DNA of 64,000 nucleotides, taken from a bacterium. GTDB lineage: Bacteria; Patescibacteriota; Minisyncoccia; Sungbacterales; GWA2-42-14. Both the position numbers and the translations under genes were made by a program. The notes beneath the pieces are model-generated. The model did not search any database, had not been told where the DNA came from, and worked only from the letters and a program-made list of their open reading frames with translations. Location of the stretch: positions 32 to 64,031 of the forward strand of contig JAUSFV010000006.1 of the NCBI GenBank assembly GCA_030649305.1, written 5' to 3'. Position 1 is the stretch's first letter; each line of letters begins with the position of its first letter. Positions 7,386 to 47,502 of the stretch are shown piece after piece.

Positions 7386-8888
7386 ATGAAAATTCTTGCC
7401 AAACAATTCGGGGCCGCTCCGAAAGCCGAAGCGATTGCTTTGGCGCTTTTTGAAAAAGAGGATATCGCAAAAAATCCTCTTTTCCGTCTGCTCCCAAACA
7501 ACGTGCAGGCGCTCGTAAAAAAGTTTATTTCAGGCGGAGGATTTTCGGGAAAAGAAAGCGAAACAAAAGTTCTACCAATTTTTGAAACCTCCCTCAAAAA
7601 AATAATTCTGCTTGGACGTGGAGATAAGCAAAAATGGCATCGGAGAAAAGCGCTCCTTATTCCCCGCCGCGTAATACAAACAGCAAAACAAGAGCGCGTC
7701 AAAACAATTGCAACGCACTTGGATATGCTGGGCGATAATTCAGAAGCGCACTCGTCCGCGCGCGACATCACGACAAATATGCTCATGGCGTATTTTGAAT
7801 ATCGCCGAAAAGTAATGCCGAAAGACGGGTGGCCAGAAGTTAAGGAGGTAACCCTGCTTTGCGAAAAAAAAGATGCAAAGGCCGCAACCGAAGGCATTCG
7901 CGAGGGCAACATCATTGGTGAGGAAACAAACGAAACGCGGATACTTTCAAATACCCCCGGAGGCGAGATGACGCCCGCAACCCTTGCAGATGCCGCACGG
8001 AGAGCAGGAAAAAAACACGGGGTTCGTGTTACCATTTTTGACGAGAAAAAAATGAAAGCACTCGGGTTTGGCGGAGTACTTGGCGTTGGAAAGGGTTCAG
8101 ACATTCCTCCATGCTTTATCGTTATGGAGTACCGGCACGGTGGAAAACAAAAACCGCTGGTGCTCGTCGGCAAAGGCGTTACGTTTGATACCGGAGGATT
8201 AAACCTCAAACCAAGCGAGGGAATTTATGAAATGCATCTTGATATGTCGGGGGGTGCGGCGGTAATTCATGCCGTTTCCGCAATCGCGCGCCTGAAACTC
8301 CCGTTGAATGTCGTGGGGCTCGTGCCCGCGGTTGAAAATATGCCGTCGGGTTCAAGTTATCATCCGGGTGATTTACTCAAAACGTATTCGGGTAAAACGA
8401 TTGAAGTGCTGAATACAGATGCCGAGGGCCGGGTTATTTTGGCGGATGCTTTAGCGTATGCCAAAAAATTCAATCCCTTGCTCGTTGTAGATATTGCGAC
8501 ACTCACGGGTGCCGCCATGGGCGCACTTGGCCAGCGCGTATCGGCGCTCTTTACACAAAATCAGAAATTGGAAAAAATATTTCGCGAACTTGGAACACAG
8601 AGCGGAGACGAAATGTGGCCGCTTCCCTTGTGGGACGAATACGACGCTGATATTCAGGCGACATTTGGCGATATCGCGAATATCGCGAAAACAAAATATG
8701 GCGGGGCAATTACGGCCGCATCATTCTTAAAACAATTCGTGGACGGGTACCCGTGGGTGCATTTGGATATCGCGCCGACCATGACCACGATTGAAAGCCA
8801 GCACTTGGCAAAGGGGGCATCAGGTGTTGGTGTGCGATTTTTCGTAGAGCTTGCGAAGCATATCGTGAAAAATGGGATCTCTGTATAA
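7386..8888 (+). CDS. pepA: Leucyl aminopeptidase (M17)
   Basis: GKGVTFDTGG, DMSGGAAV, NTDAEGR, WVHLDIA. Confidence 0.97.
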   Translation: MKILAKQFGAAPKAEAIALALFEKEDIAKNPLFRLLPNNVQALVKKFISGGGFSGKESETKVLPIFETSLKKIILLGRGDKQKWHRRKALLIPRRVIQTAKQERVKTIATHLDMLGDNSEAHSSARDITTNMLMAYFEYRRKVMPKDGWPEVKEVTLLCEKKDAKAATEGIREGNIIGEETNETRILSNTPGGEMTPATLADAARRAGKKHGVRVTIFDEKKMKALGFGGVLGVGKGSDIPPCFIVMEYRHGGKQKPLVLVGKGVTFDTGGLNLKPSEGIYEMHLDMSGGAAVIHAVSAIARLKLPLNVVGLVPAVENMPSGSSYHPGDLLKTYSGKTIEVLNTDAEGRVILADALAYAKKFNPLLVVDIATLTGAAMGALGQRVSALFTQNQKLEKIFRELGTQSGDEMWPLPLWDEYDADIQATFGDIANIAKTKYGGAITAASFLKQFVDGYPWVHLDIAPTMTTIESQHLAKGASGVGVRFFVELAKHIVKNGISV

Positions 8889-8923
8889 TTATAATAATGA
8901 ATGAGAAGGTTCTATATTTTGGT

Positions 8924-8962
8924 CGGGGTGTAGTATATCGGCAGTACGCATGCATGGGGGTG
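8924..8962 (+). pseudogene. 5' half of an interrupted tRNA-Pro
   Basis: CGGGGTG-TA-GTATATCGGCAGTAC-G-CATGC-ATGGGG; near-identical to the intact copy but with a different acceptor stem. Confidence 0.85.
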
Positions 8963-9048
8963 AAGCGTGAATGTCTTCACGCTTCACGGGATTACTTCCC
9001 CCTATGTTTTATTATCAAAGTAATCCCCGGCTCTTTCTGTATTTTGGT

Positions 9049-9122
9049 CGGGCTGTAGTATATCGGCAGTACACATGCATGGGGTGCATGTAGGTCGGGT
9101 TCGATTCCCGACAGCCCGACCA
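9049..9122 (+). tRNA. tRNA-Pro(GGG), CCA encoded
   Basis: Acceptor CGGGCTG/CAGCCCG, anticodon arm CATGC-ATGGGGT-GCATG, T arm TCGGG-TTCGATT-CCCGA, ACCA. Confidence 0.95.
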
Positions 9123-9139
9123 AAATACAGAACAAAGAG

Positions 9140-9174
9140 ATGTAGGCCGGGTTCGATTCCCGGCACCCCGACCA
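9140..9174 (+). pseudogene. 3' half of the interrupted tRNA-Pro
   Basis: ATGTAGG-CCGGG-TTCGATT-CCCGG-CACCCCG-ACCA; CACCCCG pairs with the CGGGGTG at 8924. Confidence 0.85.
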
Positions 9175-9342
9175 AAAAATTGAAGAAAAAGATGCGGGCC
9201 GGGCCTGCCCCATTAGATGCGAAGCTATCTAATGGGGTGAAATTCCCGGCAACCCCAAAATCAAACCGGACAAAAACGAACTCAAAATACGAAGAAAATC
9301 GATTTAACAAAAAACCGGTAACTAACAAAGTTTTAAATAATT

Positions 9343-10296
9343 ATGGAAGACATAATTTTTCAAATATACGGAACTTTTGTTCTGACTCTAGCAAGTTTTG
9401 TTTTACCAATTATTGCTATCGCTTTATCGGCCTTCCCCGATGGAGTTAAAACGTTAAAGCAAACCTACGCGAATGAACAAAAACAAGCAGAAAAAAATCT
9501 TAGTGATGAATTAGAAAAAAAAGAAAAATCCGAAAAAAATCTTGATTATGACCTCTTGGAAAAAAATATCCGGACTTTAAAATTAACCAAAAAGAAGACC
9601 GAGAAACGCTTATCATATTTAAATCCCAATTATATTTTATCAAAAAGCGTAATAGCGATTGGAATTTCTATTATATCTTTTTTACTTGGACTACTATTTT
9701 ATAACCTGTCTTCTTATATCATCCCGTCGTTTCTTTTTTTGCTCAGTATTGGAACTATGGTCTGGATGATTATAATTTTTTCTAACTCAATTAAAATCGT
9801 TATTGAAGCCTCGTCCGCAGTTCAAGAAATACGCAAAACCACGGAAGAAACAATAATAGAGCTCCTCGCCACCCTTGTTGATAATAGCAAAAGCAAAGAT
9901 CGGTCACTCTTTATAGAACACAAACATATTTCAACATCTTTCAACAATGAAGAGGTTAAGGAAGGAAAAGAGTATTCGTTCTCAATAAATAAAAAATATA
10001 AAATAAAAATTTCTTTGACGAATTCTAGCGAATATATGCTAAAAACGGCTGAACTCGGTTTTACTTTTCCAGCAGAATTTTTAGTTGAAGGAACAACAAT
10101 ATCTAGAACCTATACTGGCGATAAAGAAAAAATAATCAGATTTGAACACGACCACCTTCAATCTAAAGAAAGGATGCAAGAAGGTGCAATAGATATGACC
10201 TTTCTAAAAATGGGGGTATTCGATATAGAGACATTTGTTAAAGGAGAAAATCTAAAAAGAAAAACTATTAAATTTAAAATTAAAGTTATCGAATAG
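9343..10296 (+). CDS. Hypothetical membrane protein (AT-rich), TM-coil-TM-TM plus beta-rich C-terminal domain
   Basis: 317-aa ORF; visibly lower GC than its neighbours. Confidence 0.8.
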   Translation: MEDIIFQIYGTFVLTLASFVLPIIAIALSAFPDGVKTLKQTYANEQKQAEKNLSDELEKKEKSEKNLDYDLLEKNIRTLKLTKKKTEKRLSYLNPNYILSKSVIAIGISIISFLLGLLFYNLSSYIIPSFLFLLSIGTMVWMIIIFSNSIKIVIEASSAVQEIRKTTEETIIELLATLVDNSKSKDRSLFIEHKHISTSFNNEEVKEGKEYSFSINKKYKIKISLTNSSEYMLKTAELGFTFPAEFLVEGTTISRTYTGDKEKIIRFEHDHLQSKERMQEGAIDMTFLKMGVFDIETFVKGENLKRKTIKFKIKVIE

Positions 10297-14042: not shown

Positions 14043-14807
14043 ATGCATCCCTACATCGGTGTTACTGGATTCACCAAACTGGAAGAAGTTGCAGCGGCAC
14101 TTGAAGTATTCCCCCACAATCATTCCCGAAAACTTATGATCGGCGGGCTTGCGTCATGGAAGTCGCTCCGCGGCATTCCCCTGAAGCCAATCCGGCAAAA
14201 ACGATTCCCCGCTCCGGAACTTTTTAACAGCATATTCCCCAACGATACGCGGGCGGTCAATCTTATTCATTACAGCATGGGAGAGCGAAAAAACGACGAC
14301 GGAGCTCTTCTCGCTGATATGCTAAAAATTCACGAACTTGCCGGACCGAATTTTCAAGGATTCCAACTTAACATCGCATGGCCGGAAATTGATCAGATAG
14401 CCGAATATCGAATGGTAATGGGCTTTGACTACCGCATCGTCCTCCAAATTTCGCACGAGGCGATTGAAGCGGCGGGTGGAACGCCAAAAGGTGTCACCGA
14501 TATGCTCTCTTACTACCCGGGGTTCATTGATGACATCCTCATTGACGCAAGCGGGGGTCTTGGCAAGGAGCTGGATACGGAACGCGCACGAGAATTTCTT
14601 TCCAAAATAAACATGCGACTTGATATCGGCCTAGGTACAGCGGGCGGACTTGGCCCCGACTCATTACATCTCATAGAACCGCTTCTGGAAGAATTTCCCG
14701 ATTTGAACATTGATGCGGAGGGAAAACTTCGCACCGCCGAAAACGAACTTGCTATCGGCGCGATGAAAACATATCTTTCCAAATCCACTCAATTATTTTC
14801 CTCCTAA
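14043..14807 (+). CDS. TIM-barrel protein, TrpF/PRAI-like
   Basis: LIDASGGLG, AGGLGPD, IDAEGKLR phosphate-binding-type motifs; AAGGAGG RBS. Confidence 0.7.
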   Translation: MHPYIGVTGFTKLEEVAAALEVFPHNHSRKLMIGGLASWKSLRGIPLKPIRQKRFPAPELFNSIFPNDTRAVNLIHYSMGERKNDDGALLADMLKIHELAGPNFQGFQLNIAWPEIDQIAEYRMVMGFDYRIVLQISHEAIEAAGGTPKGVTDMLSYYPGFIDDILIDASGGLGKELDTERAREFLSKINMRLDIGLGTAGGLGPDSLHLIEPLLEEFPDLNIDAEGKLRTAENELAIGAMKTYLSKSTQLFSS

Positions 14808-16238: not shown

Positions 16239-18974
16239 ATGAAATACATACAGAGGGGCTTTACCCTCATTGAACTCTTGGTCGTTGTCGGAATCATTTC
16301 ACTCATCGCATCCGTCGGCCTTATCTCCATGAACGAAGCGCGCGAGAAAGCGCGCGATGCCAAGCGTCTTGCCGACCTCAACGAAATTCAAAAGCTCGTT
16401 GAGTTGTATAAATCCGATAACAATGGCAACCCGCCCGGCCAGGAAGGAACCGAATACATCAATGGCGTACCGAACTGGATTCCGGGACTCTCCCCCCGCT
16501 ATATTAAAGAACTCCCATCCGACCCGCTTGATGCAGACCCCTATCAATACCACTACCAACGGGAAGGGAATGATTATGAAACCGCGGGCATTCTTGAAAA
16601 ATCGTCAAACGAAGCCTCATGTAACGATGGCGGATCGGGCGGATGCCGCTTCTTTGAAGTCGGTACAAAATTGACAATCTTTAACCCCAGTGAAGGCGCG
16701 TGGCACGCCGCGTCATCTTCGGTGCTGACCCCGGGAGACGGAGAAACCGGAACAACCACACCGCCCGACAATGGAGGCGGCGGAACCGGAACCACCACCA
16801 CAGCAACACCCGTGAGTGCCCCGACCGAAACCATTCTCGGATGGTTCAAGGGTATTACGGGTTCGGGCCCGAGTTTGAGCGGCACGTACACCCACGCATT
16901 TTATTTCAAATACAGCACCACCGTGAATCCGAATCAATCGTTCCGGGTGTATCTGAAGCGCCCGGGAGAGAGCGCCTATACCGCAGTCGCTACCTTCACG
17001 ATTCCTGTTTCCATTCCCACGGGCGGCTGCAACCCCGCGAAAGAATTCTCTGCGAACGGTTGGAAGATTGAATGCTCTACGTATCCGTATTGGCGCGTGT
17101 TCGGCCCCGCAGGAACAGCCGCAAATTACTCCACGGGAGTGTATTATGCGTATGTCGCTGCGGTGGATGAAGCCGGCACCGAAGGAACTCTGTCCCCGGT
17201 CACCCAAAATCATCTCCTAAATCAATCACTCATCACAAGCCCCGTCGGAGCCCAATCAACCACAACCCCGACCATCACATGGACGATTCCTACATGGAGC
17301 GGCATCAATATGGTCTATTGGATATCGGTCTACACGGCAGATGAAACTTCCATCTGGACGGAATCAAAAAGCGTTCTTTCGGGGACGACCACGGCGAACG
17401 CATCACTTCAATATGCCGGACCCGCCTTGAGCCCTGGCGTTACCTATTACACGAACCTCTGGGGCGAGACGCGCGAAAACCCCAACAGCACCTATGCCTT
17501 CACTATGACAAACAATATGATGCCCGCGTTTACCGTAGCAGAACCCGCGGCGCAAGGATGTCCGGTTTCCATCACATCCCTCACGCCCTCATCCGGCCCT
17601 GTCGGCACCGCAGTATATATCCGCGGAAATTGCTTCACGCCAAACGGCCAATGGACCGGCACGAACAATATCACGTTTTACACGGGCTCCGGCACCACAA
17701 GCTACGCGCATATGCAGGTATTCAATTCGCCCATTCTTGCGGACGGCAGTTTGTATTTCGGCATTCCCTATAATCTCTATAAGCCATCCGATGGCTCAAG
17801 GCCAAATGTCATTGCGGGAACCTATTACTTCATCGTCAACAACACAAATGGCACCAGCACCCCCGCGGCGTTTACGGTACCTGCCGCCCCATCTAATTGG
17901 AACAGTAGCTCATTAAATATTGACGGAGAATATCAATCTGTCGCTTGGAATGGCAATGGATATGGGGTTGTATATGGCAAAAACGGAAAAATTTACTTTG
18001 CAAAACTTGATTCAAATGGCAATAAATTAAATGAAGTAGTTCTCGCAAATGCGCCAAACTATGTTTTTTGGACCAATATCGTCTGGGATGGATCAAAATA
18101 CGGCGTTGTGTGGCCCGAAGCAAATCCGCATAATTTGCGCTTTGCTACCATGAATATTGACGGCAATGTACTTTCTAATATTCCCCTGACAGCGGGAACC
18201 GATAATGCCGACACAGAACGGCCTGCCCTCCTTTGGACCGGCAGCGAATATGTTGTTGCCTGGTCTGGCGGATGGCCGGATAATTTCAACAATCCATATC
18301 TGCCTGCACACATAATTTACTTTACAAAAATTGCTTCTAACGGACAGACAATCGTTGTAAATAAGAAAAAGTCAATAACAAGCGGAGACACACGAGCCGC
18401 AAACGGCCCCATCATTTCTTTGGCTTGGAACGGAACAAATTTCGGTGTCACATGGCAGGATATCAGAAATAGCAATGACAGCAATAACCCTGCACTGTAT
18501 TTCGCTACTTTGGACTCCGCGGGAAATAAACTAGGCAATGATATAAAAATTTCCGGAAACGGACGGGTTGGAAGCCCTAAAATTTTCGCCGACGGATCAA
18601 ATTATGCTGTTTTCTGGAGAGAAAGCAGTATTGATAATGTTAATGCAAATAGCATATACGCGACCAAGCTGGATTCGGCGGGCAATAAAATTATTCCCAA
18701 TCAAAACTTAAATACAAAAGGAGATAATGAAATGCGCCCATCAATTGCCAAAGCTGGCAGCGATTACGGTATTGTGTGGACTTCGTATCCGGAACAAAAA
18801 CTATATTTTAAATCTATAAATTCTGGTTTTGCTATGGTCCTGGATAACGAACTTGTATCGGCGACGGCTGGTGATAATGATAATGCTTATGCGGTGTGGG
18901 GTAATAACAAATATGGAATTATCTGGACGAATATCCAAAATAATCAACTGCAATTATATTTTGGAATCAAATAA
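16239..18974 (+). CDS. Large type IV pilin/pseudopilin fusion (N-methylation motif, Ig/IPT-like domains, repeat domain)
   Basis: QRG^FTLIELLVV, ARDAKRLADL, T/G linker, ITSLTPSSGPVGT, repeated WNGxxYGVVW. Confidence 0.9.
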   Translation: MKYIQRGFTLIELLVVVGIISLIASVGLISMNEAREKARDAKRLADLNEIQKLVELYKSDNNGNPPGQEGTEYINGVPNWIPGLSPRYIKELPSDPLDADPYQYHYQREGNDYETAGILEKSSNEASCNDGGSGGCRFFEVGTKLTIFNPSEGAWHAASSSVLTPGDGETGTTTPPDNGGGGTGTTTTATPVSAPTETILGWFKGITGSGPSLSGTYTHAFYFKYSTTVNPNQSFRVYLKRPGESAYTAVATFTIPVSIPTGGCNPAKEFSANGWKIECSTYPYWRVFGPAGTAANYSTGVYYAYVAAVDEAGTEGTLSPVTQNHLLNQSLITSPVGAQSTTTPTITWTIPTWSGINMVYWISVYTADETSIWTESKSVLSGTTTANASLQYAGPALSPGVTYYTNLWGETRENPNSTYAFTMTNNMMPAFTVAEPAAQGCPVSITSLTPSSGPVGTAVYIRGNCFTPNGQWTGTNNITFYTGSGTTSYAHMQVFNSPILADGSLYFGIPYNLYKPSDGSRPNVIAGTYYFIVNNTNGTSTPAAFTVPAAPSNWNSSSLNIDGEYQSVAWNGNGYGVVYGKNGKIYFAKLDSNGNKLNEVVLANAPNYVFWTNIVWDGSKYGVVWPEANPHNLRFATMNIDGNVLSNIPLTAGTDNADTERPALLWTGSEYVVAWSGGWPDNFNNPYLPAHIIYFTKIASNGQTIVVNKKKSITSGDTRAANGPIISLAWNGTNFGVTWQDIRNSNDSNNPALYFATLDSAGNKLGNDIKISGNGRVGSPKIFADGSNYAVFWRESSIDNVNANSIYATKLDSAGNKIIPNQNLNTKGDNEMRPSIAKAGSDYGIVWTSYPEQKLYFKSINSGFAMVLDNELVSATAGDNDNAYAVWGNNKYGIIWTNIQNNQLQLYFGIK

Positions 18975-47430: not shown

Positions 47431-47502
47431 GCCCCCGTAGCTCAACGGATAGAGCAATCCCGTCCTAAGGGAGAGATGGGAGTTCAATTCTTCCCGGGGG
47501 CA
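47431..47502 (+). tRNA. tRNA-Arg(CCT)
   Basis: GCCCCCG acceptor / CGGGGGC-A, D arm GCTCAACGGATAGAGC, anticodon loop GTCCTAA, T loop TTCAATT; no encoded CCA. Confidence 0.88.

Follow-up and report, generated by a model that had tools for sequence, protein, structure and literature searches.

A 180-nt hairpin cassette carrying an intact tRNA-Pro gene inside a split tRNA-Pro gene: a probable mobile element in a Patescibacteria genome

How does an intact tRNA gene come to lie between the two halves of an older gene for the same tRNA? This question is raised by a locus in a 64,000-nt stretch of DNA (the window) from a Patescibacteria genome, whose assembly comprises 1.02 Mb and is 94.7% complete. 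We propose that the 180 nt separating the halves are probably a non-autonomous mobile element that inserts into tRNA-Pro genes, with the outer halves likely dead and the inner gene likely working.

The inner gene is an intact tRNA-Pro(GGG) called by ARAGORN at 9049-9122. It matches the Rfam tRNA family with 52.9 bits and is the sole tRNA-Pro(GGG) that ARAGORN calls in the source assembly. The outer 5′ half (8924-8959) is identical to this inner tRNA at 34 of 36 nt and the outer 3′ half (9140-9174) at 32 of 35 nt, with E values of 8.7e-10 and 8.3e-7, respectively, in a blastn search of the 1.02 Mb genome. The tRNA within a tRNA, which the original prediction had read from the sequence alone, is therefore real. 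Five differences separate the outer from the inner allele: two compensatory pairs, found where they had been predicted (acceptor stem, G-C in the outer and C-G in the inner copy; T stem, C-G and T-A), and one base preceding the anticodon stem. Apart from TGC at positions 38-40, every inner base has a counterpart in the outer allele. An insert of about 177 nt had been claimed; this figure stands as the net gain, whereas the insert itself (8960-9139) measures 180 nt and replaces the TGC. As both old halves flank a full internal copy, we agree that the locus is not a simple att-site duplication. Its features are:

7386..8888, + strand: pepA, leucyl aminopeptidase, upstream neighbour marking the resident locus (followed by one un-nested tRNA-Pro(GGG) in 6 of the 11 relatives compared)
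8910..8923, + strand: remnant of a left arm upstream of the outer gene (identity with the arm of the inner tRNA at 13 of 14 nt)
8924..8959, + strand: 5′ half (positions 1-37) of the outer, older tRNA-Pro(GGG) allele (sequence comparison, blastn)
8960..9139, + strand: 180-nt cassette H1-H2-CGG-H3 replacing outer positions 38-40, TGC (fold; joint 8959-9140 with TGC in run X1)
8960..8987, + strand: hairpin H1, 12 bp with a 4-nt loop
8988..9027, + strand: hairpin H2, 10 bp with a 20-nt loop, abutting H1 without spacer
9028..9030, + strand: 3-nt linker CGG (NGG in 20 of 22 parsed loci, with a parser that admitted NGG or NAG)
9031..9139, + strand: hairpin H3, whose arms 9031-9048 and 9123-9139 lengthen the acceptor stem of the passenger
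9049..9122, + strand: passenger tRNA-Pro(GGG), intact, CCA encoded (ARAGORN, Rfam)
9140..9174, + strand: 3′ half (positions 41-76) of the outer allele (sequence comparison, blastn)
9171..9194, + strand: decayed right arm after the outer gene, with the same final ATG (19 of 24 nt equal the inner right arm)
9192..9257, + strand: third, oldest tRNA-Pro 3′ half (sequence comparison)
9204..9241, + strand: 38-nt hairpin replacing the first four T-loop bases of the third layer (end motifs as in the T-loop inserts described below)
9343..10296, + strand: downstream ORF of 317 aa without a Pfam or NCBIfam match

The insert is laid out as three abutting hairpins, H1-H2-CGG-H3, with the inner tRNA at the tip of H3, and contains no ORF. 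All insert hairpins named in the prediction are present, and 8917-9180 folds with z = -10.9, part of the score being due to the tRNA's own structure. No promoter or terminator consensus was found within 8800-9400, and the ORF list of the window holds no large element or integrase near the nest. Elsewhere in the window, tRNA-Arg(CCT) at 47431-47502 is plain, with flanking fragments absent, and the ORF at 16239-18974 encodes 911 aa with a long beta-rich body and an N-terminal motif that we take to be of pilin type.

The nest also has a deeper layer that had been overlooked. A third, older 3′ half (9192-9257) starts with the same ATG that ends the inner right arm, and its presence implies that insertion recurred at this site; no matching 5′ half was seen upstream. 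The outer gene has arms similar to the inner ones, with identity at 13 of 14 nt on its 5′ side and at 19 of 24 nt on its 3′ side. Because they match the inner arms and lead into the third 3′ half, we infer that the outer gene was itself an earlier passenger, which suggests that it too arrived in such a cassette. The T-loop hairpin of the third layer shares end motifs with T-loop inserts at Ile(TAT), Arg(TCT) and Glu(CTC) in the same genome. Its 8-nt arm motif is mostly chance genome-wide (144 copies, 7 near tRNAs and 5 near GIY-YIG genes), and a genome-wide scan for one end motif gave 35 stems, 7 of them near tRNAs, with most of the long ones due to chance.

We compared the locus with contigs from four of the six listed runs; such contigs give no allele frequencies. 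Run X3, from a different study, contains one contig equal to 8975-9175 with 0 differences, and the left junction 8959/8960 is spanned by no piece among those listed. In run X1, a contig of 690 nt (record 1, depth 39) equals 8301-8959 with 0 differences and continues with TGC and 9140-9167, while another contig is identical to 9140-9900. Judged by its sequence, record 1 is likely the empty site, an uninterrupted outer allele at the pepA locus, although its 3′ side of only 28 nt means that it could be a graph chimera with another organism's tRNA. The same run also holds 9065-9141 at a depth of 37.6, similar to that of record 1 and in a context that the contigs do not give; it has no long piece over 8960-9047, a gap in contigs that proves nothing. 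Finally, run X4 contains 9032-9147 (2 differences) directly after an outer-type 5′ half, with H1-H2 absent.

Since a contig with identical flank carries the uninterrupted allele, the insertion would seem to be recent and to have occurred in one step. Together with the recurrence of the layout in other genomes, this allele bears out the earlier suggestion that a resident tRNA was replaced by an incoming copy. Among the pepA loci of 11 relatives, six have a tRNA-Pro(GGG) within 900 nt downstream and five do not; by the score used, none of these six tRNAs is nested.

The same nesting recurs in dozens of metagenome contigs, which is why we regard the insert as likely to be a mobile cassette and not an intron. 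In metagenome contigs, a tRNA-Pro 5′ half with G as its next base, at position 38, was matched 43 times, at 37 distinct loci. At 29 of the 37, an intact tRNA-Pro on the same strand starts 13-94 nt inside the junction; the other eight are three ordinary tRNAs with G38, four loci cut by contig ends and one (L156) without a passenger. None of the 37 loci has an ORF inside the insert. The nested loci cover all three tRNA-Pro anticodons, and their junctions fall after position 37 on the left and mostly before position 41 on the right. With stricter de-duplication, and including the window, 36 loci were parsed. The succession H1-H2-N(G/A)G could be read from the junction in 22 of them compared to 39 of 400 random windows, using a parser written after the pattern had been seen. 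At 18 loci the parse continues through H3 and rejoins at position 41. The passenger counts come from ARAGORN, as the parser misplaced the passenger in L138, L165, L168 and L160 and missed L134, L151 and L156.

While the order of the hairpins is preserved, the location of the passenger varies between the tips of H1, H2 and H3. In 10 hand-picked loci with the passenger in H1 (four loci with a short H3 were left out), 13 of 15 pairs in H2 and H3 show two-sided changes and 99.3% of cells are paired, a value reached in 0 of 500 shuffles. This count is based on alignment A3; the MAFFT alignments A1 and A2, in which the hairpins were misaligned, were set aside.

A covariance model built from the 10 loci (R1) fails to hit the cassette of the window, H2 and H3 being longer there. 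Membership of the window in the family accordingly rests on the parse and on L147, the closest relative of its cassette, which has the same CTCTT/AAGAG ends of H3 and lies on a contig of 459 kb. By eye, the L147 ORF after the nested tRNA begins like the window ORF at 14043-14807. Third layers are also found at L132, L136 and L139. We examined 24 R1 hits. The 16 with E of at most 6.7e-6 all adjoin tRNAs: four are nested tRNA-Pro genes, and 12 lie behind Ser, Leu or Glu tRNAs with a T-loop 3′ duplicate. None of the eight weaker ones (E above 1e-5) adjoins a tRNA, so that the 42 of 151 genomes matched by R1 overstate the spread of the family, hits weaker than E 1e-5 not being tRNA-linked.

Related modules differ in what they enclose. 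Behind intact Ser, Leu and Glu tRNAs (L201, L203-L209, L233, L245, L248 and L251), H2-NGG-H3 is closed by an inverted T-arm copy that pairs with the 3′ duplicate, giving a three-way junction with 3-nt linkers. At L156 and L159 (575-720), a tRNA-Pro(GGG) with perfect stems has H1-H2-TGG after position 37 and no passenger; its halves resemble the window's inner allele closely. The H3 pattern occurs in genome contigs at only four loci, two of which adjoin tRNA-Pro. The exact leader-plus-tRNA pattern had no match in metagenome contigs, and neither did the junction pattern in viral contigs, where no vector was seen. One junction pattern was mis-specified; it matched 1 of 401 genomes, missed the window and is uninformative. 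At threshold, Rfam found nothing other than tRNA in the window and in 11 related loci.

Next to this family, tRNA debris is common across the source genome. Based on a threshold above the best of 100 random windows, 18 of 59 ARAGORN tRNA calls have a piece of their own 5′ end upstream or of their own 3′ end downstream (four both, nine 5′ only and five 3′ only), compared to 1 and 0 in the reverse polarity. Among the 59 calls are duplicates from overlapping contigs as well as 14 genes that belong to two arrays; of the 18 positives, one (Leu TAG) is probably a neighbouring tRNA cut by a contig end. With roughly three in ten calls bearing debris, insertion may routinely turn over tRNA genes in streamlined genomes whose tRNAs are single-copy. 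Inspected by eye, the other nests in the genome have different hairpins, sited in the D arm, the anticodon loop or the T-loop, and outer copies often bear several inserts. For example, at C35:31526-31598 a tRNA-Ile(TAT) is nested in the T-loop of an older Ile(TAT). A blastn survey placed 21 of 23 tRNA fragments within 140 nt of an intact tRNA, and hence we saw no broken copy that must be spliced. Two dense tRNA arrays on contig C16 (22828-23697 and 45328-45783, with nine and five genes) contain no nested gene, and many of their isoacceptors are duplicated elsewhere; they are possibly phage-derived or binned in. The hairpins after tRNA-Thr(CGT) on C21 resemble those flanking the Y1 transposase gene C4:1498-2196 and form a second repeat family.

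The original prediction had also considered an intron-like precursor, in which the insert would be removed from the outer gene to give a second mature tRNA-Pro and release the inner one. Such splicing would agree with the acceptor and T stems of the outer copy, which are perfect at this locus as in many relatives, with L156, where the stems are perfect and the passenger is absent, and with a left junction at 37/38, the canonical site of tRNA introns; in addition, two excisions keeping 9029-9031 (GGC) would rebuild a 5-bp anticodon stem. Perfect stems, however, also fit a recent insertion, and the two-excision route works in only 7 of 18 type-2 loci. The 25 single excisions that yield a 74-nt molecule leave at most three of five anticodon-stem pairs, even if ARAGORN still labels 6 of the 25 products Pro(GGG). 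No BHB motif was found at the junctions, EndA (PF01974) and RtcB (PF01139) were not found in the 94.7% complete genome, and Rfam has no group I match at the locus whereas the same search finds two elsewhere in the genome. Furthermore, the outer copies at L134, L138, L157, L160 and L163 carry T-loop or D-arm hairpins or acceptor mismatches. We therefore consider splicing very unlikely, and the earlier suspicion that the outer copy is dead gains support from the loss of positions 38-40. A group I intron was rejected on its own terms: the base before the junction is G37 and not U, and although the last base is G, the missing TGC precludes exact exon restoration. ARAGORN with relaxed intron scoring, proposed as a check, did not join the outer halves among the calls listed, and its very long list over most contigs was judged spurious. 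Intron-type calls in the genome include tRNA-Met, tRNA-Asn and tRNA-Gln(TTG) (C3:29264-29582, C16:18127-18432 and C29:38646-38968); the two Rfam group I hits coincide with the tRNA-Met and tRNA-Asn calls, and the tRNA-Gln(TTG), with a 232-nt insert, is called only under relaxed scoring. One study reportedly dealt with group I introns in Patescibacteria tRNAs. Split tRNA calls in such genomes need not be introns.

Three further readings of the nest were weighed against the same data. If ordinary integrase events had duplicated 5′ and 3′ halves and later deletions had reduced the element to hairpins, the att-like T-loop 3′ duplicates that end H2-NGG-H3 behind intact Ser, Leu and Glu tRNAs (12 of 16) and the two tyrosine recombinases of the source genome (PF00589, on other contigs than the nest) would be accounted for. 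The inner gene arrived whole, though, as it is internally consistent, with both compensatory pairs in one allele and a leader that base-pairs with the trailer; integration is conservative, whereas three target bases are lost here; no large element or integrase lies nearby; and junction and architecture repeat over many loci, all of which makes this origin improbable. An assembly artefact joining two strain alleles could explain why, in run X1, the outer allele without interruption and a segment of the inner cassette occur at comparable depths. It is hardly credible given the single X3 contig without differences, which answers the concern about a collapsed assembly, and given the same architecture in independent contigs, including the 459 kb contig of L147. 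Strong covariation and fixed linker lengths would suit a four-way hairpin junction kept by the host as a functional RNA, an element for tRNA-Pro processing or stability. Covariation is equally expected, however, of a recognition structure in single-stranded DNA, and all six syntenic relatives with tRNA-Pro(GGG) after pepA are un-nested, as is the identical-flank contig of X1, which leaves a host function with very little probability.

We thus return to the mobile cassette. From the anatomy, the three-base loss, the family architecture, the recurrence at three anticodons and the third layer, all of them observed, we infer its mobility, the selection acting on it, the enzyme and the route of RNA processing. 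The hairpins of the cassette would replace positions 38-40 of a tRNA-Pro gene and kill the resident. Breaking a single-copy tRNA gene should be costly otherwise, so that cassettes with a cognate tRNA would predominate and persist by restoring the function. The passenger would in turn become the next target, leading to layers, while dead halves gather further hairpins. An enzyme acting in trans would recognise the hairpins on single-stranded DNA, and a double-strand RNase such as RNase III, which is encoded in the source genome, is predicted to free the passenger from its long arms. Two successive steps may have produced the 180 nt, given that X4 has H3 and the tRNA without H1-H2 and L156 has H1-H2 without H3. 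We count against this explanation that the varying position of the passenger in H1, H2 or H3 leaves the entry of a tRNA into a hairpin loop unexplained.

As the enzyme acting in trans, we tentatively suggest a small single-domain GIY-YIG nuclease like those encoded in hairpin loops and next to tRNA genes in these genomes, an assignment that falls somewhat short of probable. The source genome has five small GIY-YIG genes, at C16:19583, C37:11136, C41:6612, C47:7681 and C17:6382; three of the five fill hairpin loops whose arms resemble, by eye, those of the tRNA-carrying hairpins. Their products of 83-85 aa belong to Pfam GIY-YIG, with UPF0213 proteins as nearest solved relatives. Genes similar to one of these, L062, lie between inverted arms at 16 of the 30 best loci; for mismatched pairs, the count is 35 of 870. 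Searches by family or by protein supplied 52 distinct GIY-YIG loci. In 10 of these, the gene ends within 30 nt of a same-strand tRNA, compared to 3 of 997 source-genome ORFs, and the tRNA-adjacent genes mostly have a 5′ piece of that tRNA upstream. These hairpin-tied genes were found for other hairpins of the genome and class, not for H1-H2-NGG-H3: none of the 37 distinct loci of this sub-family contains a nuclease, and no GIY-YIG motif lies within 900 nt of the 24 R1 hits examined.

Several individual GIY-YIG loci show how such hairpins sit. At L062 (C16:19560-19860), a reading frame, presumably of a YdeI-like gene, is broken by a hairpin whose loop contains a GIY-YIG gene of 84 aa, and resumes beyond it; a target duplication was not seen. 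In L170, a single split tRNA-Asp contains both a hairpin with a nuclease gene and another with a passenger tRNA. GIY-YIG hairpin cassettes at L173, L175, L181, L182 and L183 split the tRNA at about 11/12, with the right arm rebuilding the 5′ end, and the GIY-YIG stop codon at L117 and L176 lies within the 5′ end of the following intact tRNA.

The same cassette could instead be moved by a Y1 transposase (IS200/IS605 or REP-associated) or by recombination during natural transformation, a reading that keeps the core of the mobile cassette and competes for the enzyme step alone. Hairpin ends without target duplication would suit it, and the source genome has three Y1 genes. These are flanked by other hairpins (by eye), and the link to tRNAs was found for GIY-YIG genes, the only nuclease class counted; we regard this mover as rather doubtful.

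More broadly and more speculatively, it is conceivable that Patescibacteria harbour undescribed, recombinase-free selfish hairpin cassettes, cut and moved by GIY-YIG single-strand nucleases of 80-90 aa and targeting fixed tRNA positions. Their loops would contain either the nuclease or a complete cognate tRNA, so that essential tRNA genes would repeatedly be destroyed and renewed in place, and alleles would move between lineages. New here are the likely empty allele, the three-hairpin family with fixed junctions and the measured link between nuclease and tRNA. The cassette offers a defined substrate for tests of GIY-YIG mobilisation: its junctions are exact, its three hairpins covary, and both an allele that is likely empty and candidate enzymes are available.

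How does the cassette compare with known systems? Among the top-ranked titles and abstracts, a scope outside which most subscription literature lies, we found no description of a whole tRNA nested in a split cognate tRNA; further literature for comparison is available (10.1101/2020.01.27.920355; PMC3293823). Introns that interrupt the anticodon loop of tRNAs affect the same region, but the cassette lacks a catalytic core, a U before the 5′ junction and a BHB, and some of the exon bases are lost. Among bacterial MITEs are the Rickettsia palindromic elements, which occur in tmRNA and RNase P RNA genes (PMC2229807). Such MITEs resemble the cassette in being 100-200 bp, non-autonomous, palindromic and within RNA genes; those described in the available part of that paper (0 hits for ‘tRNA’) are tolerated inserts that carry no replacement gene, with no tRNA target named. 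The cassette is likewise MITE- or REP-like in being short, non-coding and palindromic at independent loci, and the X1 joint 8959-9140 supplies empty and filled alleles of one site, unless it is a chimera. A classical MITE was rejected: the ends of the cassette belong to different hairpins, and 3 nt are lost with none duplicated.

Ssn proteins are small GIY-YIG enzymes that cut specific single-stranded DNA hairpins, with NTS/SRM hairpin repeats (PMC11893778). The authors liken the layout NTS-ssnA-NTS to a mobile element and raise the mobilisation of DNA by GIY-YIG nucleases as a hypothesis; tRNA, CPR and Patescibacteria have 0 mentions in the main text of the paper (PMC11893778). In both cases small single-domain GIY-YIG genes are tied to hairpins. 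However, the Ssn gene lies between separate repeats whereas in the source genome the gene fills the loop of one hairpin, the repeat sequences differ, and the window cassette has no nuclease gene of its own. The GIY-YIG nuclease SegB of phage T4 cleaves at a conserved tRNA motif and promotes the spread of tRNA genes (PMC2330249); unlike the hairpin cassette, it is a free-standing phage double-strand homing endonuclease, and homing replaces a region and nests no tRNA in another.

Like the cassette, tRNA-targeting integrative elements (prophages, ICEs and genomic islands) leave a working gene together with the debris of the old one (10.1101/2022.07.05.498093). A working gene appears to be kept here as the intact tRNA-Pro(GGG). 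Instead of a full and a partial tRNA as direct repeats at the ends of an element, the locus has both old halves flanking a whole new gene within 180 nt; three bases are lost, and no integrase was found in or beside the element. The cassette thus works like a tRNA-targeting integrative element, yet it fits neither the integrase, the group I, the BHB nor the classical MITE pattern. Whereas the known tRNA-targeting elements restore the gene by a partial copy at their edge, the cassette encloses a complete gene and can insert again into the very gene that it brings.
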